A stretch of DNA of 64,000 nt, from positions 64,001 through 128,000 of the forward strand of contig CBDCWP010000030.1 in the NCBI GenBank assembly GCA_965223505.1, read 5' to 3'. The DNA comes from Planctomycetota bacterium. Lineage in GTDB: Bacteria; Planctomycetota; PLA2; JAEUHO01. The notes beneath the pieces were generated by a model. That model was not told where the DNA came from, made no database searches, and saw nothing but the letters and a program-made list of their open reading frames with translations. This document shows positions 1 through 55,130 of the stretch, in pieces. The translations under genes were made by a program, and so were the position numbers. Numbering within the stretch: position 1 is the first letter of the stretch; every line of letters begins with the position of its first letter.

Positions 1-1398
1 CTGCAATCGCCGGCGACGAACCAGGCACAGTACGTGATCATCCCGCGCGCATCGGTGCCAGGCAGCACCGTGTTCGCCGACGATCAGGGCCTGGCGTGCG
101 CGATGCTCGACTCCGAGGCGGACAACGTCGGCGGCGCCAACGCCGATCCGAACGGGGACGGCGACATGGTCGACACCGAGCTGCTCGTCCTCGACCTCTC
201 GTTCCCGGGCGGCGGCCCGCCGAACATCTTCGGCTGGGCAGGAACGCAGGCGGGACCGATGCCGCCCGCTCAGCCGCCGTCGCCCGTGGATCCGAACGCC
301 GCGTTCGCGACGAGTGCGTCGGACACGCTCGTCGCGTACTACGTAGACGAGACGGCCGTCGGGGTGGGTCTCGATCAGAACGGCGACGGCGACGCGATCG
401 ACCTCGTGCCGGCGTACTGGAACTTCGCGATCCAGAACGAGGTGCGCCTGGCACTCGCCCCCGGTGTCCCTGCCGGCTCGCTCAGCGCGCGCCTCGGTGT
501 CGGATCGCCGCAAGCGATGGTCACCGACGTGGGTCGGTTGTTCTTCACCGCGAACGAACAGGGACGCGCCGGCGTCGCGCTCGGGAGCAACAACGACGGC
601 GACGGCGGTACGGACACGCAGATCCTCTACTGGGCCGACACGACGGTGCCCGCGCAGCCGTTCCTGCCCGCCACGCCGGTCGCGCCGGGACTGCCGGGCG
701 CGGGCGGCGCGCTGACGGCGCTTGCGCTGGACGGCGGCGGTTCCGTGAGGGCGCTGACACCCGGCTGGCTGGCCGTGATCGTCAATGAGGGCGCCAACGG
801 CAACCTCGACATCAACGGCAACGGCAACGTCGGCGACATGGCGTATCTGTTGATCGATACCGCCCAATCGCCCCCGGTCGTGCACGTCCCCGCGGTGGCC
901 GGCGGCAACACCGGTCTCGCGCCGTCGGACTCGACGATTCTCGCGAGCGGCGGGAACATCCCGATCACCGGCGTCGCGAACAATCAGGGCGTCGTGCTGC
1001 GACTGACGGAAGCACAGAACGGCAACCTGGACGGAGACGGCAACGTCAACGAGATCCTGCTGGCGTTCGTCGACTTCAGCACGCCCGGCACGGCGACCGT
1101 GCTGGATGCCGGCGGCGACTACTGCACCATCCGCAACGTCGACATCGCCATCACCGCGAACGAGGCGTACACGAACTCGAACTACAACAACGACGGCGAC
1201 CAAACGGACTTCCTGCTGCGGATCCTCACGACACAAGGTGTGGTCGTCGAGCCGGGCACGCCGTGCGCGCAACGGTCGATTCCCGCCGCCGACACGGGTG
1301 CGTTCTGGGCGTATCTGCGCGACGAGGTGCTGGAAGGTGTCTCGCTCAACGGCGACAGCGACACCCTCGACCTCGTGCTGGCGATCTGGATGCCCTAG
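1..1398 (+). CDS. Repeat protein with 7 visible E...Dx(N/D)xDGDxxD-type calcium-binding-like loops (probable beta-propeller), 5' truncated
   Basis: Frame open from base 1 to TAG at 1398; repeats DPNGDGDMVD, DQNGDGDAID, NNDGDGGTD, DINGNGNVGD, NLDGDGNVNE, NYNNDGDQTD, SLNGDSDTLD. Confidence 0.75.
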   Translation: MQSPATNQAQYVIIPRASVPGSTVFADDQGLACAMLDSEADNVGGANADPNGDGDMVDTELLVLDLSFPGGGPPNIFGWAGTQAGPMPPAQPPSPVDPNAAFATSASDTLVAYYVDETAVGVGLDQNGDGDAIDLVPAYWNFAIQNEVRLALAPGVPAGSLSARLGVGSPQAMVTDVGRLFFTANEQGRAGVALGSNNDGDGGTDTQILYWADTTVPAQPFLPATPVAPGLPGAGGALTALALDGGGSVRALTPGWLAVIVNEGANGNLDINGNGNVGDMAYLLIDTAQSPPVVHVPAVAGGNTGLAPSDSTILASGGNIPITGVANNQGVVLRLTEAQNGNLDGDGNVNEILLAFVDFSTPGTATVLDAGGDYCTIRNVDIAITANEAYTNSNYNNDGDQTDFLLRILTTQGVVVEPGTPCAQRSIPAADTGAFWAYLRDEVLEGVSLNGDSDTLDLVLAIWMP

Positions 1399-2114
1399 AC
1401 GTCGGGCGCCTTGCAGGCCGGCGCGGTGTAACCCCACCACGCGATCAGCGCGAGACCGGCGCAGCCGATCCAGAAGCCCGGTTCGAACTGCGCGAAGGCG
1501 TACTCGCAGAGCGCCCCGTTGGTCGGGAACGCGCCGTGCCACTCGCGCAGAACGCTCGCCGGTAGCGTCGCCGCGTGCATGAGCGCGAGGAGCGCCTGCG
1601 CACCGATCGTCGCTTCGAAGGCGTTCAGTCGACGTTGCGCCTTCCGCCGGTAGAGCAAGACGGCTACGACCACACCGTAGGTGAGCGCGGTCTCGATGCG
1701 CCCGCCCCAACCCGGCAGGAAGCTGCGATAGTCACTGCTCAGGTAGAACGCCTCGAGAACGGCCATGCCCAGCGTGACCAGGATCAGCAACACGTTTGCG
1801 AGCCTGGGACGCCGCCGGGCGATCAAGAGTCCGATCACCCAGATGGGCAGCAGCAGGTGCGTGTAGACCGGCCGGCGCGTCCACAACGCCTCGCGCGGCG
1901 TGAAGTCGTGCGACAGATCCTGGATCGCGCTGACGATCTCGCCGGCCGGCACGCGCATGGGACCGGGCGGACCGAAGAGGATCACGCGCTCGTTCTCGAT
2001 GCGGTTGCCGTGCTCGTCGTAGGGCGCGCCTTCGCGGAACGCGTACGCCGGCAAGAACGTGTTCGCGGTGAACGCCAGAAGGCCGAGCACGAGCAGGATG
2101 CGGCGCCACGTCAT
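1395..2114 (-). CDS. Hypothetical multi-pass membrane protein
   Basis: ATG at 2114 (MTWRRILLVLGLLAF...), 11 nt after the upstream stop; several hydrophobic segments. Confidence 0.7.
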   Translation of the reverse strand: MTWRRILLVLGLLAFTANTFLPAYAFREGAPYDEHGNRIENERVILFGPPGPMRVPAGEIVSAIQDLSHDFTPREALWTRRPVYTHLLLPIWVIGLLIARRRPRLANVLLILVTLGMAVLEAFYLSSDYRSFLPGWGGRIETALTYGVVVAVLLYRRKAQRRLNAFEATIGAQALLALMHAATLPASVLREWHGAFPTNGALCEYAFAQFEPGFWIGCAGLALIAWWGYTAPACKAPDV

Positions 2115-44300: not shown

Positions 44301-45307
44301 TCGTCGACGACCTGCGCAGGCGTTTGATACCGAAGCGTCGGGTCCTTGAGCATCATGCGCTCGACGAGATAGCCCGTCTCCGGGCTGATCCGCTGGTTGC
44401 GCGCCCGGACCGGGGTGGGCTGCTCGTACAAGACCTTCGTGAGAATCTCCGCGAGGGTCGCGCCCTTGAAGGGCGGCCGCCCGGTCAGCATCGCGTAGAG
44501 CGTGGCGCCCAGACTGTAGATGTCGCTGCGGGTGTCGGCCTTGCGTGGATCTTCCGCCTGCTCGGGCGAGATGAACTGCGGCGTTCCCACCGTCGCGCCA
44601 TGCTGCGTCAGCTCGAGATCGACGGGCCCTTTCGCGAGTCCCAGGTCCATGAGCTTGGGCTCGCCGCCGCGCTTCGACATGAGCACGTTTCCGGGCTTGA
44701 CGTCGCGGTGGACGACGCCCATGCGACGCGCGCGCTCGAGCGCGTCCGCGAGCGCGCGCGCGATGCGCAGCGCCTCGTTCTCTGAGAGCGGGCCTTCGCG
44801 GTTGATGCGGTCGCGCAGCGTCTCGCCCTCGACGTACTCCATGACGACGTACGGGAAGCCGTTGCTCTCGCCGGCATCCAGGGCACGAACGATGTTGGGG
44901 TGATCGAGGCTGGCGAGGATCGACGCCTCGCTCTTCAGACGCTCGACGTGCGTCTTCTCGGAGATCAGCTCACGACGCAAGATCTTGATCGCGACGACGC
45001 GATGCAGGTTGAGGTGAATCGCCTTGTAGACGGTTCCCATCGCGCCGCGTCCGATCTTCTCGACGAGGCGGTAGCCCGCAATCTGCGTTTGCCGGCCCTC
45101 GGGCTCGATCAGCGCGTAGACCTGCTTCGCCTGCTCCTCGGCGAGCCATCCGCGCTTCACGAGGATGACCGCGAGCCGCTCGTCGATCTTGAGGTCCTCT
45201 GTCATGCGCTTCTGCAGCATGAAGGCCTCTTCGATCTGGGCCTCCGTAACGAAGCCGCGGCTCTGCGCCTCCTGAGCAAACAGGAAGTCCTCGTTGCGCA
45301 CGGTCAT
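41363..45307 (-). CDS. Membrane Hanks-type Ser/Thr kinase with large extracytoplasmic region
   Basis: GRGAMG, VAIK, HRDVKPGN, DLG, GTPQFISPEQ, DIYSLG; TM IAGITAVTLLIAGLGAAML. Confidence 0.95.
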   Translation of the reverse strand: MTVRNEDFLFAQEAQSRGFVTEAQIEEAFMLQKRMTEDLKIDERLAVILVKRGWLAEEQAKQVYALIEPEGRQTQIAGYRLVEKIGRGAMGTVYKAIHLNLHRVVAIKILRRELISEKTHVERLKSEASILASLDHPNIVRALDAGESNGFPYVVMEYVEGETLRDRINREGPLSENEALRIARALADALERARRMGVVHRDVKPGNVLMSKRGGEPKLMDLGLAKGPVDLELTQHGATVGTPQFISPEQAEDPRKADTRSDIYSLGATLYAMLTGRPPFKGATLAEILTKVLYEQPTPVRARNQRISPETGYLVERMMLKDPTLRYQTPAQVVDDVDEIVGGRSIIPEGFQGNWEAFLLRRRNKKRMRIAGITAVTLLIAGLGAAMLQDHFEKQDAHRTAQDIQEPAAELAEAENDDSAAEIDRKLDDARRALRRIQEIKSEHGISAPDTQQLEERIKELEGLQRQFQLFAKIEAECNDLLGKFKFNSALKRCLEHQVQHRPQGPVLSASAKLEERIRYNSIITWRGLVRRAESRGASNLAEFVAIWTSLASKDDGILNDEFITPRLPEPRAELDTHRRTARALAKAARDIEREVERLLEAYTPDHVKRAFDAYQAGKLRADLLDDVTALRRVVRALWGPHVHWRKLETLDARDERTGHVTRITNKLERDVDDQFRAQWSDRKQDIDRLEEKHADHAVSEARDMLEKFIRDLERWGMYPEEAFEAKVRLSGLLSRHKIAVQSAESLFERTLSDVLEALRAGDRDGIERSVQRASDDPNAWPRRALIDQLSTASDALEQVFAAAFEYVKTQVDAEPSDVKRRLPNGSVITVQKFRVQSVGGDDRTVVATWGRGSSKSTQTFELERDFPLQQLRNWATKRPIDKQSLLIIDVALVEPVDAAAKDLRPALRDYGRIQAAMAKADYLGVWSKYVDRNYQRLRGLQDERESLAFDNYRAGKALHGEDSWYTAKRKFEAFLDDPFETEAKEKFRESAEQLLRQCNAELENNKLALWLRGFIPKAAPPALDGKKRVEILVNFDDAEQMKNFKHVLGRLELEAGAVVSPDPVTERYLHLLAGEPGLRRGRPLSIESMFDPGYEISLEFSVNLLGGSVVLAFDIDGVQLAIVSADPNFHPAWRIPLSLEQLGKDGKTLVDYYGRGRGIGYHDGPGFGKLWNGDKWHWQDKHQGRHFERWSRQTDPLDGSLKPELFALPPAFRGRIRIVRNVDKLELWVANEPKGVAEPTFQNVYTIQRSEWRKVGSGTQRAGLRMSKGTGLLQILTWTPMIIDDLRLTGAIHPAWRRAQEAKEKTSEVGEKK

Positions 45308-47067
45308 CGGTCGAACACCATCGCGTCGTCGGGGCTCGCGACGCTCTTGCGCCAGCCACGGTCATGGCGGAACTCGACGCGTGAGAAGTAGGGATAGCGG
45401 TCCAAGTACGACTTCAGATACAGCTGCGCCTGCTGGTCTTTCTTGGGATCGCCGGGCGAACCCTTGGTGAGGGTCTTCAGGCCCCAGAACTCGAGCATGA
45501 ACTCGTTCACGCGATGCGCGCAGGCGTCGATCGGGTCCTTGGCAAGCAGTCCGTACTTGCAACGGAAGCTGTTCTCGACCGCTTCGAGGCCGGCCCTCGA
45601 GATGCGGTTGCTCGTGTTCGCCTTGATCTTCGGCGCCTCCTCTTCCAGAACGCGCTCGAGCGCGATCCGGCACGGCGCGTCCTTGGCCATCCCCGTCTTG
45701 ACCGCATCTTCCAACGCCTCAACGGCTTGCTCGCGAAGCTCCTTGTCTTCGATGCGACCGAGGTGCAGCGCACGCAGGAGGCCGACGGCGGCATGAAAAC
45801 GCACGTCCCAACCGCCGCCCTCGGCGCGCGGCCTCTCCGCCGGATCCCGGAGGTACTCGCGGACGGCTTCGATGCCCTGGCGCGTCCCGTGCTGCCCGGC
45901 GTGCAGCAGGCACATGGCGAGGACGGGCGGCGCGGCGCGGCGACCGCTGTTCCCGGCGGCAACGCGGATGGCCGCGTCGAGGAACCACCGTTCCTCGCAG
46001 AAGAGCAGCATCTGCGCGGCGGCGATCGCGATCTCCGTCTTGGTGCTCGGCGTCTCGGCGATGTGCCAGAGCCTCTTCCATTCGAGGATCTTCTGGAACT
46101 TCCAGATGCAGACCCCCATCGCGAACACGGCCTCGGGCCCCTGCTTCTGATGGGAGAGATCCGCGCGGGAGAGACGCTTGAGGATCAGGTCGCTGTTCCC
46201 GGTCCACTCCGGCGGTCGATCGATCAGCATCCCGACGGACAGCGCCAGTGCGGCCGCTCGCTTCATGTCGCTGCTGTCGTCGTCGAGCGCGTCGAAGAAG
46301 GGGTCGATGTGGGGTTCGCCGAGAAAGGCCAGCGTGAGCAAGTGCGCCCACGGCGTTACGGGATCCGCGACGACCTTCGGATTCCAGCGTTCGTTGAGAC
46401 GCTGCAGGGTCACGTCGCCTCCGCGCTTGGCGAGCGCCATCAGGGCCATCGCGCGTACCTGCGCATTGTCGTCCAGCACGCGTCGCAGCAACACGCGATC
46501 CGCCTTCTGAAGGCTCCTCTGCATGGCGCCGCTTCGGTCGGGGTTCAGAATGTCCGGGACGCGACGATACCGATCGCGGTCGACCCCCTCTCGCCAGTGG
46601 AAGCAGCCGAGCGCAAGGCAACCGACGGCGCGTTGCCACGGATCCATGCTGTCGGCGTCCGCGATCTTGATGAGTGGGTTGAGGGTCTCCCACAGCTCCG
46701 GCGCGGGACCGCGGCGGTCACGCAGCGCGGCAACGGTGAGCGCACTGTTGATGATCGCCGTGTGGTTCCCACCGACCAGCTCGTCGATGAGCGCAGGAAC
46801 GCTCCACACGTGGTACTGCCAGACCAACCGCTCGCGCGCGACCGGCGTCTTGTTCTGGTCAGCGAACGAGTTGGCGATGATCGCGCGGATGATCGGGTCG
46901 TGGTGCGCGTCGGGCTCGGGGAAGAAGATCTGGGGCGGCACAGGCTCGAAGTCGCGCTCGTCTTCGGCTGAGGCGGGCAGAGCGCAGAGGAAGATGATCG
47001 CGAGCGCGGCGAGTCCGCGGCCCGCGAGGCGTCGCGTCGGGAGCTGGCGACCGGTCGAAGCCCTCAC
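45304..47067 (-). CDS. Exported HEAT-repeat protein
   Basis: Signal ending ASA; DDNAQVRAMALMALA, DSSDMKRAAALAL, WDVRFHAAVGL; ATGA overlap with the kinase. Confidence 0.75.
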   Translation of the reverse strand: MRASTGRQLPTRRLAGRGLAALAIIFLCALPASAEDERDFEPVPPQIFFPEPDAHHDPIIRAIIANSFADQNKTPVARERLVWQYHVWSVPALIDELVGGNHTAIINSALTVAALRDRRGPAPELWETLNPLIKIADADSMDPWQRAVGCLALGCFHWREGVDRDRYRRVPDILNPDRSGAMQRSLQKADRVLLRRVLDDNAQVRAMALMALAKRGGDVTLQRLNERWNPKVVADPVTPWAHLLTLAFLGEPHIDPFFDALDDDSSDMKRAAALALSVGMLIDRPPEWTGNSDLILKRLSRADLSHQKQGPEAVFAMGVCIWKFQKILEWKRLWHIAETPSTKTEIAIAAAQMLLFCEERWFLDAAIRVAAGNSGRRAAPPVLAMCLLHAGQHGTRQGIEAVREYLRDPAERPRAEGGGWDVRFHAAVGLLRALHLGRIEDKELREQAVEALEDAVKTGMAKDAPCRIALERVLEEEAPKIKANTSNRISRAGLEAVENSFRCKYGLLAKDPIDACAHRVNEFMLEFWGLKTLTKGSPGDPKKDQQAQLYLKSYLDRYPYFSRVEFRHDRGWRKSVASPDDAMVFDR

Positions 47068-47103: not shown

Positions 47104-48642
47104 TCAGGGATGCTTGAGCCCGTTCTTGACGAAAGCCCGCCACTTCTCGTCGAGCTGCCGGAAGCTGACGCCGTAGGCCTCTTTCAGCGCGTCCTTCTCA
47201 TCGACGGGCACGCCCTGGGCGTCGGTCTTCTTCGTTAGGTCGATGAACTGCTTGAACTTGGCCGCGTCCCACTTGATGAGGCAGTCGACGACGCTCCAGG
47301 CCTTGACGAGCTCGACGTACCCGAATTGGTCGGTGCCCATCTTTGCGAGGCGCTTCATGGGCGGGTCGTTGCCGGCGTTGACGAGCGCGAGCAGCCCGGC
47401 TTTCCACTTGCTGCTGTTCGCCCAGATCGGCCCCTCGGTTCCGCCGCCCGATGCCGTCCCGCCCTTGCCGAGCGTGAACGACTGGGTGTACCCGTACGTC
47501 TCGAGCTCGAGGTGATAGGCATACCCCTCGCGCAGCCAGACGCTCGGGTACTTGTAGTTGATTCTGTAGCGGGTCAGCAAGATGAGCGCCACGTTGTGCA
47601 GCACGACGCTCGCAAACGTCTTGTCGGTCTCCGGGAACTGATAGGCGACGGCCGCCTTGCGGGGGTGCGTCCACCAGTAGCTGTGCTGGCGAGTCACCGA
47701 GCGGGTCCACCCGGGCACGAGGTCCTCGCAGTTCTCGGTCTCGTCGAACCACTTCGCGAAGCGCGCATACGAGGGCGCTTTCTTGAAGATCACGATCTGG
47801 ATGCGCTCGCCGATCTCCTCCGGGTAGTCGTTGCCCTGCGGCTTGAGCAATCGGCGTTGTAGTGCGTAGAACTCCTCGGCGGCCTTGGCGATGCGCTCGG
47901 TGATCTCCTTCGTCTGGTCACCGATGATGTCGAAGTGCGGCGTCCAGTGGTACTTGACCTTGAGGCGCGCGCCAGCCTTGATGTCCTGGACGTACTTCTT
48001 GCCTTCCTCGAACCCGACTTTTGTCCACTTGCCGTCGATGAGCTTCTCGCCGCGGCGCTTGTGGTACTCCTCCTCGGTGACCCAATCGTCACCGTCTTTC
48101 ATGAGGCCCTTCTCGCGGGCGTCCCGCTCCTCCGGCGTAACCCAGCCGCCCTTGTAGAAGACGAGACCCTTGGCCTTCATCTCGGCCTCGTACTTCTCCT
48201 TGAGGTACTGCTCCTTCTCCGACGGGCTCATCCACTGATCGTCGACGAGCTCGTGGCCGAGCATCTTGCGCGCGCGCTTGTCCTTGGGTTTGAGCTCGAT
48301 GATGCGTTCGAGGAACTGCGTGAGCTCATCTTCGAAGCCCTGCTTCTTCGCCCACTTGTGAAGCTCCCACATCTTCTTGGGGTCGTCCTTGGCGAGGCCG
48401 TATCGGAAGCTGAGCTGATTGCGGAGCGGGGGAACGGACGTGTTGACGAGCTTGACCTTGCTCCGCGGCAAGGTCTTGACACCGTCGAAGGTCGTCTTGA
48501 TGACCACGGTCTCTTCGTCTTGGCTGACGACCTCGCCTTCGAGGACCTCACCGTCGGTCGTGGTGACCGTGTGGGCGAGCGCGAGCGACGGAACACCCAT
48601 CACCAGGCCGAAGAGCCCTAGAATCAGGGGGCGGAAGCGCAT
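47104..48642 (-). CDS. Exported protein with gluzincin-like C-domain lacking HExxH
   Basis: Signal ALA; TVTTTDGEVLEG N-terminal module; GLV.YKGGWVT-type repeats; VVLHNVAL...WLREGYA. Confidence 0.7.
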   Translation of the reverse strand: MRFRPLILGLFGLVMGVPSLALAHTVTTTDGEVLEGEVVSQDEETVVIKTTFDGVKTLPRSKVKLVNTSVPPLRNQLSFRYGLAKDDPKKMWELHKWAKKQGFEDELTQFLERIIELKPKDKRARKMLGHELVDDQWMSPSEKEQYLKEKYEAEMKAKGLVFYKGGWVTPEERDAREKGLMKDGDDWVTEEEYHKRRGEKLIDGKWTKVGFEEGKKYVQDIKAGARLKVKYHWTPHFDIIGDQTKEITERIAKAAEEFYALQRRLLKPQGNDYPEEIGERIQIVIFKKAPSYARFAKWFDETENCEDLVPGWTRSVTRQHSYWWTHPRKAAVAYQFPETDKTFASVVLHNVALILLTRYRINYKYPSVWLREGYAYHLELETYGYTQSFTLGKGGTASGGGTEGPIWANSSKWKAGLLALVNAGNDPPMKRLAKMGTDQFGYVELVKAWSVVDCLIKWDAAKFKQFIDLTKKTDAQGVPVDEKDALKEAYGVSFRQLDEKWRAFVKNGLKHP

Positions 48643-48734: not shown

Positions 48735-49043
48735 CTAGGACTCGCTGTCGTCGTCGGTGCCGGGGCACTTGCCCTTGCCCTTGCCCTTGCCCTTGCCTTT
48801 GCCCTTGCCCTTCCCCTTGCCTTTGCCCTTCCCCTTGCCTTTGCCCTTGCCCTTGCCCTTCCCCTTGCCTTTGCCCTTGCCCTTGCCACGGCGGCGGCGA
48901 CGGCCTTCATCCTCGCCTTCCTCCGCGAAGACGGTATTGGCGGCAAGTACGGTCGCCGGAACGGCTACGGCGAGCGCGGCAAAGCGCTTGAAGAGGCTGC
49001 GACGGTCGATCTCGCTCGACGTGTCCTGCGGGCAGTTGTCCAT
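48735..49043 (-). CDS. Tat-signal microprotein with R5-(GK)20 core
   Basis: AAGGAG RBS; DRRSLFK, hydrophobic core, VFA cleavage; mature EEGEDEG-RRRRR-(GK)20-CPGTDDDSES. Confidence 0.8.
   Translation of the reverse strand: MDNCPQDTSSEIDRRSLFKRFAALAVAVPATVLAANTVFAEEGEDEGRRRRRGKGKGKGKGKGKGKGKGKGKGKGKGKGKGKGKGKGKGKGKCPGTDDDSES
48768..48887. repeat. 20 x 6-bp repeat encoding (Gly-Lys)20
   Basis: 13 cttgcc, 4 tttgcc, 3 cttccc; all variants synonymous for GK on the minus strand. Confidence 0.95.
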
Positions 49044-49193
49044 TCGTGGCTCCTTTTCTCGGCGGGTGACGTTGGAAGACTAGGGCTGCCTCCCGGCGCT
49101 TCAAGTCGAAAGTACGACATGAGCGCCCTTCTCAGGCTCCTCTCATCTTCGGATAAGAAACGGCTGCGAACGCCGCTAGATTGCGCCTCGATC

Positions 49194-50480
49194 ATGCACA
49201 CCGAGACTCGACGACCGAAAGCGCCGCTCATGCAGTGGCTGGGCGAACACGGTGGACGCCTCGACGGCTGCCGGGCGGTCGCGGTGCCCGGAATGGGCAC
49301 GGGGCTGGTCGCGTCGCGCGACCTGCGCGAGGACGAGACGATCTTGTTCGTCCCCCGCGCCTGCTGGTTGACACGCAAGACGAAACAAACGCGCTTCGAG
49401 CCTCTCCTGACATGGGCGCAGGACGAGGGACTGTTCTCTCACAGCATGTCGCGTCTCGCGTTGCTCGTGTTGCTCGAACGGTACAATCCGTCCTCGTTCT
49501 TCGCGCCCTATCTGAGCGCGCTCTCGCCCCCGACACTTCCGGTCTCACTCAGCGAGAGCGAGGAGGCGGAACTGCAGGACCCGCTGCTCGGGACGTGGAT
49601 TCGAGAGCAAGGCAAGACCGTCGACGAAGAGTGGCGCCGATTGTCGAGCGCGCTTCCGCATCGGTTTCCGGATATCGTGACTCCGGGCGTCATCGACGCA
49701 TCGAGCTGGCACTGGGCATACGGGCATGTCGTCCAACGCACGTTCACCGTCGACGTGGACGACGAAGAGGTGTGGGTGTTGGTCCCGGGCATGGATCTGT
49801 GCAATCACGACTCGACTTCGCGCAACGCCTACTTCGCCGAAGAGGACGGGTGGCACCTGGAGACGACGCGTGCGCTGGGCGCGGGCGAGCCGATCACGAT
49901 CCACTACGGCAAGGAGAAGAACTCCGCCGACTTCTTCCTCTACTACGGATTCGTGCCACCCGACAACGTCAATGACCGGGTTTCCTTGCGTCTGGAACTC
50001 GACGCGACGGATCCCAACCGCGACGAGAAACGCGATGCGCTTGAGCTGCTTGGCCTCACGGACAAGTGCCGCGTCGGCGCCGACGGGGTGCTGCCGACGG
50101 CGTTCCTCAATGCGGCGCTGCTCTGGGGGCTAGCCGGCGACGAGTTCCGAGCGGAAGAGACCGACTGGCGGCAGCCGGGGTTCGAGAGCCGGACACTCGA
50201 TCGGTTGGCGGCGGTACTCGAGGAGCGGTTGGCGAGATTTCCGACAACGCTCGACGAAGACGGGGCCTTGTCGTCGTCGGCACCGGCCGAGGAATGGTCG
50301 CGGGCGCTCGTGTCATACCGCATCGCGTACAAGCGTGTGCTTCACGGCGCAGCCGACGCGATCCGGACGCGGGCGGCAGGCATTCGCGACGGCACGATCG
50401 AGTCGTGCCTACACGTGCCGGTCGATCCCGAAGCGAGCTACGGACTCGTCGATGTCACGGTGCGGGTCGGTGGTCGCTGA
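49194..50480 (+). CDS. SET-domain methyltransferase, Rubisco-LSMT/SETD3-like
   Basis: GTGLVASRDL, FFAPYLSAL, LVPGMDLCNHD, GEPITIHYG, YYGFV..N.ND, C-terminal FPTTLDED...YRIAYKRVL; start could be 49119, 49194 or 49230. Confidence 0.88.
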   Translation: MHTETRRPKAPLMQWLGEHGGRLDGCRAVAVPGMGTGLVASRDLREDETILFVPRACWLTRKTKQTRFEPLLTWAQDEGLFSHSMSRLALLVLLERYNPSSFFAPYLSALSPPTLPVSLSESEEAELQDPLLGTWIREQGKTVDEEWRRLSSALPHRFPDIVTPGVIDASSWHWAYGHVVQRTFTVDVDDEEVWVLVPGMDLCNHDSTSRNAYFAEEDGWHLETTRALGAGEPITIHYGKEKNSADFFLYYGFVPPDNVNDRVSLRLELDATDPNRDEKRDALELLGLTDKCRVGADGVLPTAFLNAALLWGLAGDEFRAEETDWRQPGFESRTLDRLAAVLEERLARFPTTLDEDGALSSSAPAEEWSRALVSYRIAYKRVLHGAADAIRTRAAGIRDGTIESCLHVPVDPEASYGLVDVTVRVGGR

Positions 50481-50575: not shown

Positions 50576-50685
50576 GGTGGTCTCCAAGGGGCCGTGCGGT
50601 CGGGCCCTACGTACGGAACTCCCGATTCGCGCCGGAATTGGACGCGCGTCCCGCCGGAAGAACCACGATGCGCTATGCTCCGCTC

Positions 50686-51303
50686 GTGACTGCACAGCGG
50701 GACGAGGATCTGGAAGCCCTGGAGGCCGCCGAGGATCGCTCGACAGCGCTGGCAACGCAGTTCGATCGGCACCGGCACCGGCTGCTGCGGATGATCGAGC
50801 TGCGCATGGACCCGGCGATGCGCCAGCGCGTAGGGGCATCGGACGTGTTGCAGGAAACATGGCTCGAGGTGTCGGGACGCATCGCTGACTGGCTTGCGGA
50901 CCCGCGCATGCCCTTCTTTGTCTGGGTCCGTTTCATCGCCGCACAGCGCCTTCAGAAGCTGCGCCGGTACCACGTCGGCGCCAAGAAACGCTCGCTCGAG
51001 CAGCAGGTGGGACTCGGCGCGTTCGCACGCGCGACGTCGGTCGCGTTGACGGACCGCCTGATCGTCTCGGGAATCAGCCCCTCCGGCGCGGCGGTCCGCG
51101 CCGAGATGCGGCTTCAGCTGGAAGATGCGTTGGAGACCATGCCCCCCACCGACCGGGAGGTGCTCGTACTACGGCACTTCGAGCAGCTCTCGAACAACGA
51201 GGTCGCGACCGAGCTCGGGATCTCGGTCAGCGCGGCGAGCCGCCGCTATGTCCGCGCCCTCGATCGTCTCCGAACCGTTCTCGATGCGGACCGCGCTCCG
51301 TGA
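50686..51303 (+). CDS. ECF sigma-70 factor, planctomycete-type
   Basis: RQRVGASDVLQET, FFVWVRFIA, RYHVGAKKRS, SPSGAA, DREVLVLRHFEQLSNNEVA; GTG 6 nt after TATGCT (alternative ATG 50668). Confidence 0.9.
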   Translation: MTAQRDEDLEALEAAEDRSTALATQFDRHRHRLLRMIELRMDPAMRQRVGASDVLQETWLEVSGRIADWLADPRMPFFVWVRFIAAQRLQKLRRYHVGAKKRSLEQQVGLGAFARATSVALTDRLIVSGISPSGAAVRAEMRLQLEDALETMPPTDREVLVLRHFEQLSNNEVATELGISVSAASRRYVRALDRLRTVLDADRAP

Positions 51304-54300
51304 CCGGCGCCGACGACTCGGTCGAGCAGATCCTGGAACGGCTCGCGGAGCAGATGCGCGGCGGCAAGCTCGTGAACCTCGATGAGATCGTCGCAGAGCA
51401 CCCGGCGTACGAGGAACAGCTTCGCCGTCTGCTGCCGGTGCTCTTCCTGCTTGAAGGCGCAGGGGCGCAAGCGACGCCGGCGGGGCCGTCACACGTCGCA
51501 CCCGAACAGATCGGCGCGTACCGCGTCGTTCGCGAAATCGGGCGCGGTGGTATGGGGCGCGTGTTCGAGTGCCGCGGCAAGAACGACGAGAGAGTCGCCA
51601 TCAAGGTCATTCACCCGCACCTCGTGACCCATGAGCGCCATCGGGAGCGGTTCCTTCGCGAGGCCGACGTAGGGCGCGGTGTCTCACATCCTTCCATCGT
51701 CTCCACACTGGGCGCCGCGACAGCGGACCTCGACGGCGTCGAGACGCCGTACATCGTTCTCGAGTACGTCCAAGGGCAGACGTTGCGCCAGCTGCTCGAC
51801 GAGGTCGGCGTCGTACCGGAACGTCTCGTGCGGTTCATCGGAGAGCGCGTCGCATCCGCCCTGGCAACGCTCCACGCCGAGGGAGTGACGCACCGTGATG
51901 TCAAGCCTGAGAACGTCGTCATCACGAGCGACGAAACCGTCAAGCTGATGGATCTCGGCGTCGCATTGCTCACGGAGCAGGCGCTTCGGCTGTCACGCAC
52001 GGGCGAGTTCGTCGGCTCGCTGCTGTACGCGGCGCCGGAGCAGATCCACGGCGGCGCACAAGGACCGGCAACCGATCTCTACGCCCTCGGTCTACTGCTC
52101 TTCGAGCTGTCCGCCGGCGAACACCCATTCCGACGCAATCCGCAGGGTGCCGTCGAAGGCGCAGTTCCGAGCTTGTCCGCGATTCGCGCGAACGTCAGTG
52201 CATTCCTCTCTGCGATCGTCCAGGAACTGCTTGCGCCCGACGCCGGTCGACGTTTCGAGAGCGCCCAATTGCTCGCCGAGGTGCTACGGGACGGCGACGA
52301 GTCCGACTGGTGGAAGTCACGCGAGGTCACGCCGCGCTGGCATCCGACATGGCGCCGGGGCGACGACGACATTCGACTGCACGGACGTGACGACGAGCTC
52401 GCGCGGCTGGACGCGTTGCTCGAGCGCGCCGAGGCCGGCGACGGCGCGGCTTTGGTCGTCGAAGGCGAGGCGGGCGTCGGCAAGAGCCGCATGGTCATGG
52501 AATGGCTCACGCGGCTCGAACGGCGATCGCATCCCCCACGCGTGACGGTCGCCGCGTGCTCGAGCGACGCCTCCGTGGGCACCGCTCCGCTCGCAACCGC
52601 GATGCGGGTGTTGGTCGGGGCCATGGACATCGAGGAGCGAGTGAATCAGCTCCTGGATACGGATGCACCCCTGGTCCAAATCCTGTCAGAAGAGCTGCGG
52701 GACGGCAGCACGTCGATGACACCCACGGCTCGCGCCACGGCCTACCAGCGGCTGTTGTCCGCCCTCGCACGAGAGCAGCCGCTCGTGTTCGTCATCGAGG
52801 ATCTGCAGTTCGGCGGCGAGGGCGTGTGGGAGTTGTTCATCGCGCTCGCCCGAACCGCTCCCGGTCAGCGCGTGTGCGTCGTCGGGACGACGCGGCCGGA
52901 CGTCTCCGAGAAGATCCGGCGTTCGGCAACGTCCACGCCGGAAACGCAGTGGATGACGCTGAGCGGACTGGACGCGGCCAGCAGCCACGCGCTGCTGCGC
53001 GAAGTACTCGGGCGCCGCGCTGCCGGCTCGACCGGAGCAGCGGACCTCATCCGAGCTGCCGACGGCAACCCGTTCTGCTTGCTCGAGTTCGGCCGCGAGC
53101 AGCGCCGGCAACGCAAGCGCGTCGACACGTCCAAAGGCGCGGCGGCGGGGATCCGTGTCCCGGACTCGTTGCGGGCTCTCGTGGAAGATCGGCTCGCCGG
53201 GATCGACAGCGAGGCCCGTGAGCTCTTGTCTGTCGCGGCTTGTTGCGGCGCGCAGTACGACCCGGAGCTCATCTGCGACGTTCTCGAGATGCCTCGACTA
53301 CGCGGTCTGCGGAGGTTCCTCTCGCTCGACCAGGAGAACGCCCTCGTCTCCGTGGACGGTGACCAGTATCGATTTCGCCATCACCTCGTACAGGAAATGC
53401 TCTACGAGGACATTCCGCCGGCGCTTCGACGTTCCTACCACACGTCGCTCGCTCGTGAGCTCGAGCGGCGCAGCACCACAGGGGACCGTCGGGTGTCTGA
53501 CCGCACCGCCCGGTCGCTGTTGCGACACTTCCTCTACGGCGACGAAATCGAAGCGGCGGTGCCCTATCTGAGGCAGGGTCTGGAGGCGCTGCAGCGAAGC
53601 GGCGACACGTCTCGCATGATCAAGCTTGCGCGTTTGATCGACGAGCAACACGAACGAGTTCCGCGATCGCTCCACGTCAGCGCACTCGCGATCCTTGCGG
53701 ACGGACTGCTTTCGTTGGACTCCGTCTCCGAAGCGCACGACGCATCTCGGCGAGCGTGGGCACTCTCCACGCACGAGGATCCAGCGGCGCGCGCCACCGT
53801 GGCCACCGGGTACGGGATCGCTCTGCGGCTGCTGGGACGGCAGAAGCAGTCGATCCAAATCGGAGAACAAGCGGTCACCCTTGCGCGCGAAGCAGACGAT
53901 GCGGGGGTATTGAGCGACGCACTGGGGCGACTGGCGCTGGTCTACATGCTGACCGGTCGCACCGAACACGCGCGCACGTCGGCTGACGAGGCGCTGCAGT
54001 CGGCACTCTCCACGACCGACTTCGCACGGCAAAGCTCGGCCGCTCGCCACCTCGGCGTGATCGAGATGGAGTTGTCGAATCTCGAACGGGGACGCGAGCT
54101 GCTCGAGTTCGCCGAACGAGTCGCTCGCGCGCACGGTCACCGCGACCGCGAGGCGGACGCGACCCATGCACTGGGGCTGGTGGCCCGTATGGAGGGACGG
54201 ATCGACGACGCCGTCGAGCTGACTCGACGCAACCGTGAGCAGGCGCGGTCTCTCGGGTTGTCGCGCATGGAAGCCGTCGCCTGGGCCAACTACGCCAATG

Positions 54301-55130
54301 CGCTGCTCGACGTCGGGCGGGCCGCCGAGGGCGAAGCCGAGGCGCGCGCTGCGCTGGCATTCGGCGCGACGCTCGACCACCCGTTCGTTGCGGTGCACGG
54401 AAACGCCGTGCTTTCGAACGCACTCGAGCGCGTAGGACGCCTGTCAGAGGCCGCGACGGCGATGGCCGGCTCACTGGAACGAGCGGAGCCCCTGAAGATC
54501 ATCCCGATGGAAACGGCTTTCCGAAGCGTCTACGCGGGGCAACTCGCATGGCTCGGACGGTGCGAAGAAGCGGAGGTCCAGCTCGAACGCACGAAGGAGC
54601 GTGCCGGCGCGGGGGCCACCCCCTTGATGCGCGCTCACATGGTCATCGCCGAGGCGAAATTGCTGGAGTCTCGACAACGGCCCGCCGAGGCGCTGGAGAT
54701 CCTGTCCGAGCGAATCGACGCCATCGGCACTCGGGAGCTCTTCTTCGAGATGCGGCTCCGGTTGTTGGCCGGGCGACTGGCTCTTGCGTGCGATGCCCCC
54801 GACGAGGCGCGCCGGCATCTCGATGACGTATTGGCAGATGCGCGCCGACTCGGACTGGAGGGCGTCACTGCCCACGCCTTGCTCCTTCGCGGAGGTCTGC
54901 CCGATGAGGAACTCCTGCCCGCGTACGTGTCACTCGAGGAGCAAGGCGAGGCGCTGCCGATCATGGAGCGGATGCTGTGCTCCTCTGTCGTGGGTCGTGC
55001 CCGCGCAGACCGAAAGTTGGTGGCGCAGGCACACTCGGACCTGGCGCTCGTGATCGAAAGGGTCGATGCATCCTCGCGTGCGGCTATGGAGGCGATGCCG
55101 TTCTATCGGGCGATTCGTGAGACGCCCTAG
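51300..55130 (+). CDS. Ser/Thr kinase-AAA ATPase-TPR protein (STAND-like)
   Basis: GRGGMG, HRDVKPEN, DLG, YAAPEQ; Walker A GEAGVGKS, Walker B VIEDLQ, GNPF, YRFRHHL; GTGA overlap with the ECF gene. Confidence 0.92.
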   Translation: MTGADDSVEQILERLAEQMRGGKLVNLDEIVAEHPAYEEQLRRLLPVLFLLEGAGAQATPAGPSHVAPEQIGAYRVVREIGRGGMGRVFECRGKNDERVAIKVIHPHLVTHERHRERFLREADVGRGVSHPSIVSTLGAATADLDGVETPYIVLEYVQGQTLRQLLDEVGVVPERLVRFIGERVASALATLHAEGVTHRDVKPENVVITSDETVKLMDLGVALLTEQALRLSRTGEFVGSLLYAAPEQIHGGAQGPATDLYALGLLLFELSAGEHPFRRNPQGAVEGAVPSLSAIRANVSAFLSAIVQELLAPDAGRRFESAQLLAEVLRDGDESDWWKSREVTPRWHPTWRRGDDDIRLHGRDDELARLDALLERAEAGDGAALVVEGEAGVGKSRMVMEWLTRLERRSHPPRVTVAACSSDASVGTAPLATAMRVLVGAMDIEERVNQLLDTDAPLVQILSEELRDGSTSMTPTARATAYQRLLSALAREQPLVFVIEDLQFGGEGVWELFIALARTAPGQRVCVVGTTRPDVSEKIRRSATSTPETQWMTLSGLDAASSHALLREVLGRRAAGSTGAADLIRAADGNPFCLLEFGREQRRQRKRVDTSKGAAAGIRVPDSLRALVEDRLAGIDSEARELLSVAACCGAQYDPELICDVLEMPRLRGLRRFLSLDQENALVSVDGDQYRFRHHLVQEMLYEDIPPALRRSYHTSLARELERRSTTGDRRVSDRTARSLLRHFLYGDEIEAAVPYLRQGLEALQRSGDTSRMIKLARLIDEQHERVPRSLHVSALAILADGLLSLDSVSEAHDASRRAWALSTHEDPAARATVATGYGIALRLLGRQKQSIQIGEQAVTLAREADDAGVLSDALGRLALVYMLTGRTEHARTSADEALQSALSTTDFARQSSAARHLGVIEMELSNLERGRELLEFAERVARAHGHRDREADATHALGLVARMEGRIDDAVELTRRNREQARSLGLSRMEAVAWANYANALLDVGRAAEGEAEARAALAFGATLDHPFVAVHGNAVLSNALERVGRLSEAATAMAGSLERAEPLKIIPMETAFRSVYAGQLAWLGRCEEAEVQLERTKERAGAGATPLMRAHMVIAEAKLLESRQRPAEALEILSERIDAIGTRELFFEMRLRLLAGRLALACDAPDEARRHLDDVLADARRLGLEGVTAHALLLRGGLPDEELLPAYVSLEEQGEALPIMERMLCSSVVGRARADRKLVAQAHSDLALVIERVDASSRAAMEAMPFYRAIRETP

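Follow-up and report, generated by a model that had tools for sequence, protein, structure and literature searches.

Diatom silaffins are secreted lysine-rich peptides that act as polycations and carry methylated or alkylated lysines, and the rickettsial outer protein OmpB is reportedly methylated on many lysines by the dedicated enzymes PKMT1 and PKMT2, which are not known to be SET proteins. In mycobacteria, Pethe et al. are said to have found in 2002 that the methyl-lysines of the surface protein HBHA confer resistance to proteolysis. The methyl-lysine domains of mycobacterial HBHA/LBP are, according to passages of one source (PMC8467707), a case of a bacterial surface protein with a lysine-rich repeat region that carries 20-26 methyl groups and binds sulfated glycans, the repeats of HBHA being heparin-binding. 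Two further sources (PMC5828336, PMC1635270) describe the (GK)n linker of DNMT1 and alternating-lysine Z-DNA-binding peptides as docking on acidic pockets or nucleic acid, and in the literature found, bacterial SET enzymes are treated mainly as effectors aimed at host chromatin (PMC3980110, PMC2904774). Here we describe a locus in a 64,000-nucleotide stretch of DNA from a Planctomycetota bacterium (the window; positions 64,001 to 128,000 of contig CBDCWP010000030.1; 67% G+C, no N), at which a gene for a SET methyltransferase lies head-to-head with a small open reading frame (ORF) for a peptide carrying 20 lysines in a Gly-Lys repeat. Few endogenous substrates of bacterial SET enzymes are known, and this head-to-head peptide offers a simple direct assay in a free-living bacterium.

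The SET gene and the peptide gene form a conserved divergent pair

The original prediction had described a 102-residue ORF with a ribosome-binding site, a twin-arginine leader and a mature part running acidic-RRRRR-(GK)20-Cys-acidic, and this description held at 48735..49043 on the minus strand. In translation, the precursor reads MDNCPQDTSSEI-DRRSLFK-RFAALAVAVPATVLAANTVFA/EEGEDEG-RRRRR-(GK)20-CPGTDDDSES, where the slash marks the predicted cleavage after A40, the twin-arginine motif spans D13-R14-R15-S-L-F-K19, the R5 run covers residues 48-52, lysine occurs 20 times and histidine is absent. The divergent SET start, expected within about 150 bp, was likewise borne out, the ATG at 49194 lying 150 bp from the ATG of the peptide gene. 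The longest SET ORF (49119..50480, plus strand) comes to within 75 bp of the peptide gene, and a public gene call begins near 49230; however, SET homologues align only from residue 26-35 of the longest ORF, so that the ATG at 49194 is the likely start.

To place the pair, we used a set of 40 genomes of the class, many of them incomplete (55-96%), among them the genome of the window itself (5.15 Mb, 44 contigs, 92% complete). The SET clade was present in 5 of the 40 class genomes (5/29 genomes of the family, 4/16 of its genera and 2/6 genomes of the genus g5), and a profile built from the leader only (A4) matched the same five genomes with E-values of 1e-24 to 5e-16; the next best match stood at 3e-3, and the weak matches beyond the five lay inside long unrelated ORFs. 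Both genes were thus found together in five class genomes, neither was found in 35, and no genome had just one of them. Co-occurrence elsewhere, on which the original prediction had hung, was seen in every case, as 5/5 accessible SET-clade loci carry a divergent ORF with the leader and a Gly-Lys/Arg (G-K/R) repeat. The two genes are adjacent and divergent in all five loci, with spacings of 92, 140, 150, ~294 and ~330 bp. When the window ORFs of at least 70 residues in 38001-60000 were compared with the four other loci by BLASTP (E <= 1e-8, a threshold that the short low-complexity peptide itself does not reach), the matches were to SET, to SET shadow frames and to kinase domains, the last being generic similarity (29-33% identity), and a Pfam search of 22 flanking ORFs from three loci returned unrelated families. 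These results demonstrate that the SET gene and the peptide gene are a conserved module of a few uncultured Planctomycetota.

The leader of the peptide is under purifying selection

Orthologous ORFs occur in four further genomes (G001, G003, G017 and G022). The five leaders have DRRxL[LF][KR]RFAALA in common, with D13, R14, R15, L17, R20, F21, A22, A23, L24 and A25 invariant in 5/5. Counted across every pair of sequences, the 17-residue core DRRxL[LF][KR]RFAALA[VL]AVP shows 63 synonymous codon differences and 22 that alter the amino acid; between G001 and G022, 17/17 residues are the same and 10 codons differ. Strong purifying selection therefore acts on the leader, and this settles the reading frame of the ORF. 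Moreover, the arginines in the orthologue repeats are written CGN, at least two steps from AAG, and as these CGN codons stand in place of Lys, the pattern in which Gly and a basic residue alternate is kept at the protein level.

The repeat tract of the window is made up of 13 GGCAAG, 4 GGCAAA and 3 GGGAAG units, and in the GK frame none of the seven variant units alters the encoded residues. The original prediction had read this synonymy as an argument for protein-level selection; the synonymy stands, whereas its value as proof is weak on its own, since the block GGCAAA-GGCAAG-GGGAAG is present three times in the tract and the seven variant units represent fewer than seven independent events. 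The same tract has zero stops in one opposite-strand frame and one stop in each of the other four. Repeat DNA alone is no proof of a gene, because simple repeats also exist in non-coding contexts. In another Planctomycetota genome, L026 1363..1854 (G224:C60) holds ~45 GK units in an open frame that lacks a start codon; a leader is likewise absent, as is any SET gene within 1.5 kb, and the tract is probably a plain hexanucleotide microsatellite. The window's own genome (G000) has a long simple repeat at L002 ~1370..1700 (G000:C39 ~153,140-153,470), which is read as RV, TR, GS or PE depending on the frame, adjoins a 465-residue gene and appears to be non-coding.

The mature parts vary among the orthologues in layout, though they are of one kind. 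Their cores contain 16-28 lysines and 2-9 arginines, arranged in G-K/R repeats that acidic or PGSG spacers interrupt. In G003, five GK blocks are split by PEDEPEAD, PGSG or PGPG; G001 has an acidic spacer plus G-K/R blocks in two copies; and in G022 the GK blocks are accompanied by an acidic spacer and a run of RRKRRRK. An acidic mature start is seen in 2/4 orthologue rows that reach it (the window and G001), and acidic tails are also present in G003 (PESDDA) and G001 (DGDD). The R5 run, previously suggested as a processing site, is not conserved, the orthologues having RGRGRG, GRGKG or KGRGKRRGK at its position, and this suggestion was not supported. The single Cys of the window peptide is not conserved in the orthologues either.

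The enzyme belongs to the SETD3/LSMT/SETD6 class and has a predicted lysine-type pocket

Both Pfam domains of the enzyme score above their cut-offs, with 30.6 bits against 22.4 for SET (PF00856) and 37.4 bits against 21.6 for Rubis-subs-bind (PF09273). A profile of 15 clade members searched against the PDB gave SETD3 at 1e-43, LSMT at 3e-32 and SETD6 at 2.6e-17. In the AlphaFold2 model (mean predicted local distance difference test 86.4, predicted template-modelling score 0.85), both lobes matched the same three proteins in Foldseek, with template-modelling (TM) scores of 0.63-0.74 and 20-24% identity over 415-437 columns. No N-terminal hydrophobic stretch was seen by eye in the five aligned SET proteins, and since the enzyme has no signal peptide and needs S-adenosylmethionine (SAM), it should be cytoplasmic. 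A predicted complex of the SET alignment, SAM and peptide residues 41-102 scored 0.01, which speaks neither for nor against binding.

Target specificity matters here because SETD3 is a histidine methyltransferase. In the relevant passages of PMC6684798, Asn255, Trp273, Ile310 and Tyr312 form the walls of the SETD3 pocket; the first of these is Phe in SETD6 and LSMT, the second is Ala in these two enzymes and the third is Ile in LSMT, and removal of the Asn255 side chain lowers the histidine activity and raises the lysine activity. Our alignment to SETD3 (HMMER) equates Asn255 with F184, Trp273 with M200, Ile310 with I236, Tyr312 with Y238 and N277-H278 with N204-H205; F184, I236, Y238, N204 and H205 are invariant in 17/17 sequences, and M200 is nearly so. 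Because a Phe sits at the position of Asn255, the pocket is predicted to be in the lysine-type state, with an unusual Met at the 273 position that is neither the Trp of SETD3 nor the Ala of LSMT and SETD6. The top PDB match was the N255F/W273A variant of SETD3 crystallised with a Lys73 peptide. Furthermore, the hairpin between F184 and M200 bears a conserved acidic run, VDxEDEEVW (D187 and E192 invariant), which aligns with the SETD3 segment holding a proline that, as a passage of PMC6400499 puts it, contacts actin upstream of the target residue (the residue numbering of this source and of PMC6684798 is one apart). This hairpin may meet neighbouring lysines of the substrate. The 17 SET proteins are all acidic (net charge -12 to -38), and we count this, like the hairpin, in favour of the proposal made below.

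A proposed route of cytoplasmic methylation and export

The motif D-R-R-x-L-[LF]-[KR] is present in 5/5 genomic orthologues with RR invariant, its first residue being Asp and not Ser/Thr. The leader has a long polar n-region and a mildly hydrophobic h-region, and AxA-type sites (VFA/E, AEA/R, AAA/E and AEA/K, identified by eye) follow in the four sequences that reach that point. TatC (PF00902), a component of the pathway for twin-arginine translocation (Tat), is encoded in the window's genome (223.9 bits at G000:C4). Transport through Tat is strictly post-translational, and a dense positive charge just behind the signal peptide makes a poor Sec substrate. Small unstructured hydrophilic proteins are reportedly transported by Tat, a result attributed to Richter et al. 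in 2007. Tat would suit the present cargo in that its SAM-dependent modification has to precede export and that a polycation is poor for Sec.

We propose that the locus is a self-contained module of an enzyme and its dedicated substrate, in which the SET enzyme methylates the repeat lysines in the cytoplasm and the resulting polycation is then exported through Tat, a reading that we regard as moderately probable. The original prediction, in which the enzyme may poly-methylate the 20 lysines ahead of export, is thereby supported in part. From the sequences we infer that the peptide would serve as SET substrate and as Tat cargo, and likewise the role of the product. The SET enzyme, as a member of the SETD3/LSMT/SETD6 class, would methylate many lysines of the newly made (G-K/R)n precursor; it could act only before export, because it is SAM-dependent and cytoplasmic, and the post-translational nature of Tat would leave time for this modification. 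The twin-arginine leader would send the small, hydrophilic, unstructured peptide through Tat, and a signal peptidase would cut at the AxA-type site, freeing the methylated polycation with its acidic spacers or tails to the periplasm or further out. HBHA suggests by analogy that methylation would preserve the charge and shield a trypsin-sensitive lysine polymer from proteases. The product might bind polyanions, for which sulfated glycans, nucleic acid, polyphosphate and silica or mineral are candidates.

The leader core is 82-100% identical among the module genomes, compared with 43-54% for their SET enzymes, and because the leader core is more conserved than the enzyme, the enzyme may also read the leader, as in the pathways of peptides that are made on ribosomes and modified after translation (RiPPs). 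In this extended form, which we consider possible but doubtful, a leader-guided, RiPP-like pathway would have the SET enzyme iteratively methylate, possibly trimethylate, every lysine of (Gly-Lys)n to give a protease-resistant, permanently charged polycation exported by Tat. More remotely, the peptide could serve as a sacrificial scaffold that is broken down to give free methyl-lysines.

Points against the proposal and alternative explanations

A number of observations weigh against methylation followed by Tat export. The support for either gene is genomic and computational only. The five module genomes are not independent, because all of them belong to one family, and the adjacency count covers five loci, SET homologues on other public contigs being left out of it. 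Two of the five peptide ORFs end at contig ends, so G017 contributes a leader only and G022 a peptide without its C-terminus. The leader is a predicted Tat signal by virtue of its motif, and seven leaders gave no Pfam match at E <= 10 and no NCBIfam Tat match at E <= 0.01, in searches whose HMMER filters drop weak short matches. As a control for leader conservation, an aldo/keto reductase with a Tat signal was compared between G000 and G001 and showed 18/30 identical residues in the signal and 62% identity in the mature part, so that no striking contrast emerged from a control that consists of this one pair (G003 and G017 were left out and the G022 row is no orthologue). The net charges of the 17 SET proteins are given without a proteome background, and an acidic isoelectric point is common among cytoplasmic proteins. 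Finally, Arg stands for Lys at 2-9 repeat positions, so that selection may act on charge and not on methylatable sites.

This free substitution of Arg for Lys, which suggests charge as the selected property, also favours an explanation in which the two genes do belong together while the methyl groups go to something other than the peptide. The exported polycation itself would be active, for example as an antimicrobial or matrix-binding agent, and the SET enzyme would methylate a cellular protein, either to protect the producing cell or to tune how much peptide is made. The co-occurrence data fit such an active product equally well, and the orthologues have acidic spacers beside their cationic blocks, resembling the neutralising pro-pieces of cationic peptide precursors, which are acidic. 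We nevertheless regard this explanation as unlikely, since no third conserved gene (for a target, a transporter or an immunity protein) travels with the pair in the flanks compared, and the neighbouring peptide is the simplest Lys-rich partner for a lysine-type SET pocket.

It is quite unlikely that the two genes share only a divergent control region, through co-regulation or joint transfer on a small mobile segment, and are biochemically unrelated. Such an explanation draws on the association being genomic only and coming from five loci of one family; yet the pair is kept in 5/5 loci whose flanks are scrambled, neither gene is found alone in any of the 40 genomes, and mobile-element genes were not seen next to the pair in a Pfam search of the flanking ORFs.

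Tat exports folded complexes in which one subunit carries the signal, which opens a third route: the acidic, signal-less SET enzyme would bind the polycation, cross Tat with it as a folded complex and act outside, perhaps on a eukaryotic partner. The net charges would allow this pairing, with -21 for the window enzyme and ~+21 for the last 56 residues, which begin at G47 (~+16 if the mature part is taken as a whole), and secreted bacterial SET effectors are known (PMC3980110, PMC2904774). Against this stand a periplasm without SAM, the fact that Tat reaches the periplasm only, with no further secretion genes linked in the flanks compared, and the lack of any sign of a host-associated lifestyle, all of which make joint export very unlikely. 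The remaining explanation, that the small ORF is a hexanucleotide microsatellite open by chance and no gene, could appeal to the nearly stop-free window tract, to the existence of non-coding (GK)n-like and other simple repeats and to gene callers having passed over all three peptide ORFs tested, but is refuted in practice by the 63 synonymous against 22 replacing codon differences of the leader, by the start, ribosome-binding site, Tat-like motif and AxA site conserved across orthologues and by Lys/Arg exchanges that run via CGN codons.

Distribution of the module and its detectability

When the SET profile was run on 401 genomes sampled evenly across the phylum, it matched the five module genomes and one distant homologue in G088 at 4.5e-31. 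The latter was rejected as a module member, as this 709-residue ORF is extended far at its N-terminus and no peptide gene adjoins it. Its SET/Rubis-subs-bind region forms the C-terminal part of L059 1435..3564 (G088:C1), and the ~300-residue N-terminal extension looks acetyltransferase-like by eye. A search with the full peptide (A1) gave matches in 98 of the 401 genomes, and those outside the five module genomes were rejected as relatives because they are low-complexity G-K/G-R sequences, including GK-rich proteins with Sec signals and microsatellites. Three GK-rich proteins among these loci (L024, L029 and L031, in G267, G304 and G381) have no SET gene in their 1.5-kb flanks; L024, whose core is a Cys-containing GEGKG, and L029, which has a GKGKDKGK region with PPGW motifs, start with a Sec-type signal, and L031 is a 372-residue protein with a GKGQGKG tail.

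Wider searches were also performed. A pattern scan of one genome per species (185,579 species), with patterns that would miss the P0003/P0005/P0006 subtype, returned only the four known loci and four spurious 31-residue matches in Bacillota, and two scans of Joint Genome Institute (JGI) metagenome contigs with SET alignments returned no relative. Among 5.8 billion clustered proteins, at least 15 close members of the SET clade, including the window's own, were found at E <= 1.6e-89 and 45-54% identity, with two weaker matches at 1.8e-12 and 6e-8, among the 8000 scored candidates, those that shared the most words. A hidden Markov model of the leader, run exhaustively against 1.84 billion representatives, added two peptides, P0018 (DRRSLLK) and P0019 (DRRGLLT), in which a DRRxLL(K/T)RFAALA leader is followed by G-K/R repeats, on contigs of 1281 and 568 bp. 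A protein homologue search with the leader sequence gave four candidates, none of which was scored.

Three of the five peptide ORFs were tested, those of the window, G003 and G001, and their exact products are absent from a collection of 15 billion proteins; the Logan DNA contigs of run X1, which holds the organism, break off at the sides of the repeat, at 48741 and 48905. Since gene callers miss the peptide ORFs and repeats break assemblies, the rarity is partly technical; the family is rare and may be under-counted. More generally, small ORFs with so many repeats go unnoticed by gene callers and interrupt assemblies. Among the sequencing-run contigs placed on the window there was no RNA contig, a result that gives no information on transcription. 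One contig of run X3 begins at window position 49083, 111 nucleotides before the ATG at 49194, with a 23-nucleotide non-matching loose end, which presumably resembles a library oligonucleotide; the run type is not on record and we draw no transcript end from it.

Coordinates and genomic surroundings

The features of the locus are collected in Table 1.

Table 1. Features of the peptide-SET locus in window coordinates
Feature	Positions	Strand	Basis
Precursor gene, 102 residues and stop: leader and polycationic core	48735..49043	-	ORF read from sequence; orthologues in 4 other genomes
Residues 1-40, leader predicted as a Tat signal: n-region (polar), motif DRRSLFK, h-region RFAALAVAVPATVLAANTVFA, cleavage VFA/E	48924..49043	-	Motif reading
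Acidic stretch EEGEDEG, then RRRRR, residues 41-52	48888..48923	-	Sequence reading
(GK)20 core, residues 53-92, 20 hexanucleotide units	48768..48887	-	Sequence reading
C-terminal tail CPGTDDDSES and stop	48735..48767	-	Sequence reading
Shine-Dalgarno-like AAGGAG, 6 nucleotides 5' of the peptide ATG	49050..49055	-	Sequence reading
Divergent intergenic region, presumed site of both promoters	49044..49193	.	Five-locus comparison
SET and Rubis-subs-bind methyltransferase, 428 residues from ATG 49194	49194..50480	+	Pfam, homologue alignment, structure model

A promoter and terminator scan found no sigma-70-like promoter and no terminator. In the intergenic regions of L016 (G022) and L017 (G017), two genomes of the same genus, the palindromes CTCGACA-ATTC-TGTCGAG and TCGACGA-TT-TCGTCGA lie 60-100 bp upstream of the respective SET starts. 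G003 has a different palindrome upstream of SET, CGACATGA-N9-TCATGTCG, and the window shows just GTCG-N6-CGAC, with 4-bp arms, at 49100..49125 (by eye). No palindrome motif is common to all five loci. These upstream palindromes may be operators.

On the SET side, a gene for an extracytoplasmic function (ECF)-type sigma factor (50638..51303, plus strand; Sigma70_r4_2, Sigma70_ECF) overlaps by 4 nucleotides the gene for a 1276-residue Ser/Thr kinase-AAA_16-TPR protein (51300..55130, plus strand), a pair that is not conserved beside the module in other genomes. Downstream of the peptide gene and on the same strand, 47104..48642 (minus strand) encodes a 512-residue protein with an N-terminal signal-like stretch, no Pfam family and a weak NCBIfam Lepto_7_Nterm match below the cut-off; it is followed by a gene for a 587-residue HEAT-repeat protein (45304..47067, minus strand). 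Neither of these two genes is conserved beside the module elsewhere. In a protein atlas, all neighbour clusters (0.91-0.93) were unnamed and recognition was low, so that this source was left aside.

Comparison with known systems

Should the leader-guided, RiPP-like pathway be real, its enzyme would be the first SET enzyme of bacteria to have a dedicated substrate encoded with it and the first of all SET enzymes to tailor a peptide, and the system would be a prokaryotic counterpart of the diatom silaffins. The module also bears on Tat itself, in that the pathway might give time for cytoplasmic modification of an unstructured cargo or let a polycation avoid Sec. An encoded, enzymatically methylated polycation of defined length could, in addition, be of use as a material or polyanion binder.

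The enzyme resembles SETD3, LSMT and SETD6 in both Pfam domains, the two-lobe fold, the NH motif and the catalytic Tyr, and shares its pocket Phe with LSMT and SETD6. It differs from them in forming a small bacterial clade, in the 20-24% Foldseek identity and in the Met at the 273 position. Moreover, the known substrates of SETD3, LSMT and SETD6 are folded proteins encoded elsewhere, whereas the presumed substrate here is a co-encoded repeat peptide. OmpB differs in that the substrate is a large autotransporter. The DNMT1 linker and the Z-DNA-binding peptides are eukaryotic or synthetic, short, intracellular and of unrelated origin. Silaffins have no homology to the peptide; they are eukaryotic, use the secretory pathway and bear polyamine and phosphate modifications, and silica biology is not evidenced for the module.

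The likeness to RiPP systems lies in a small precursor, its leader conserved and its core repetitive, that is encoded beside a modifying enzyme and co-inherited with it (5/5 loci). Unlike in those systems, the leader of the module would double as the export signal, no RiPP recognition element (RRE), protease or ABC exporter is present, and the modification is a predicted one. In the literature found (the best 10 of 86 matches), a SET enzyme was not described as a RiPP tailoring enzyme, and searches of open-access text yielded no report in which a SET enzyme from bacteria is paired with a peptide that has a Lys repeat or a Tat signal.

The closest functional bacterial precedent for the module is the mycobacterial HBHA, and the likeness is functional only: by Pfam the peptide showed no homology to HBHA, with just a low-complexity TrAA12 match below the cut-off. 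The HBHA repeats are rich in Lys, Ala and Pro and stand at the end of a folded protein, and to our knowledge HBHA has neither a Tat signal nor an adjacent SET gene. Overall, the enzyme class and multiply methylated, lysine-rich secreted proteins are known, and what is new is the co-inheritance of a SET enzyme with a pure G-K/R core behind a Tat-type leader.

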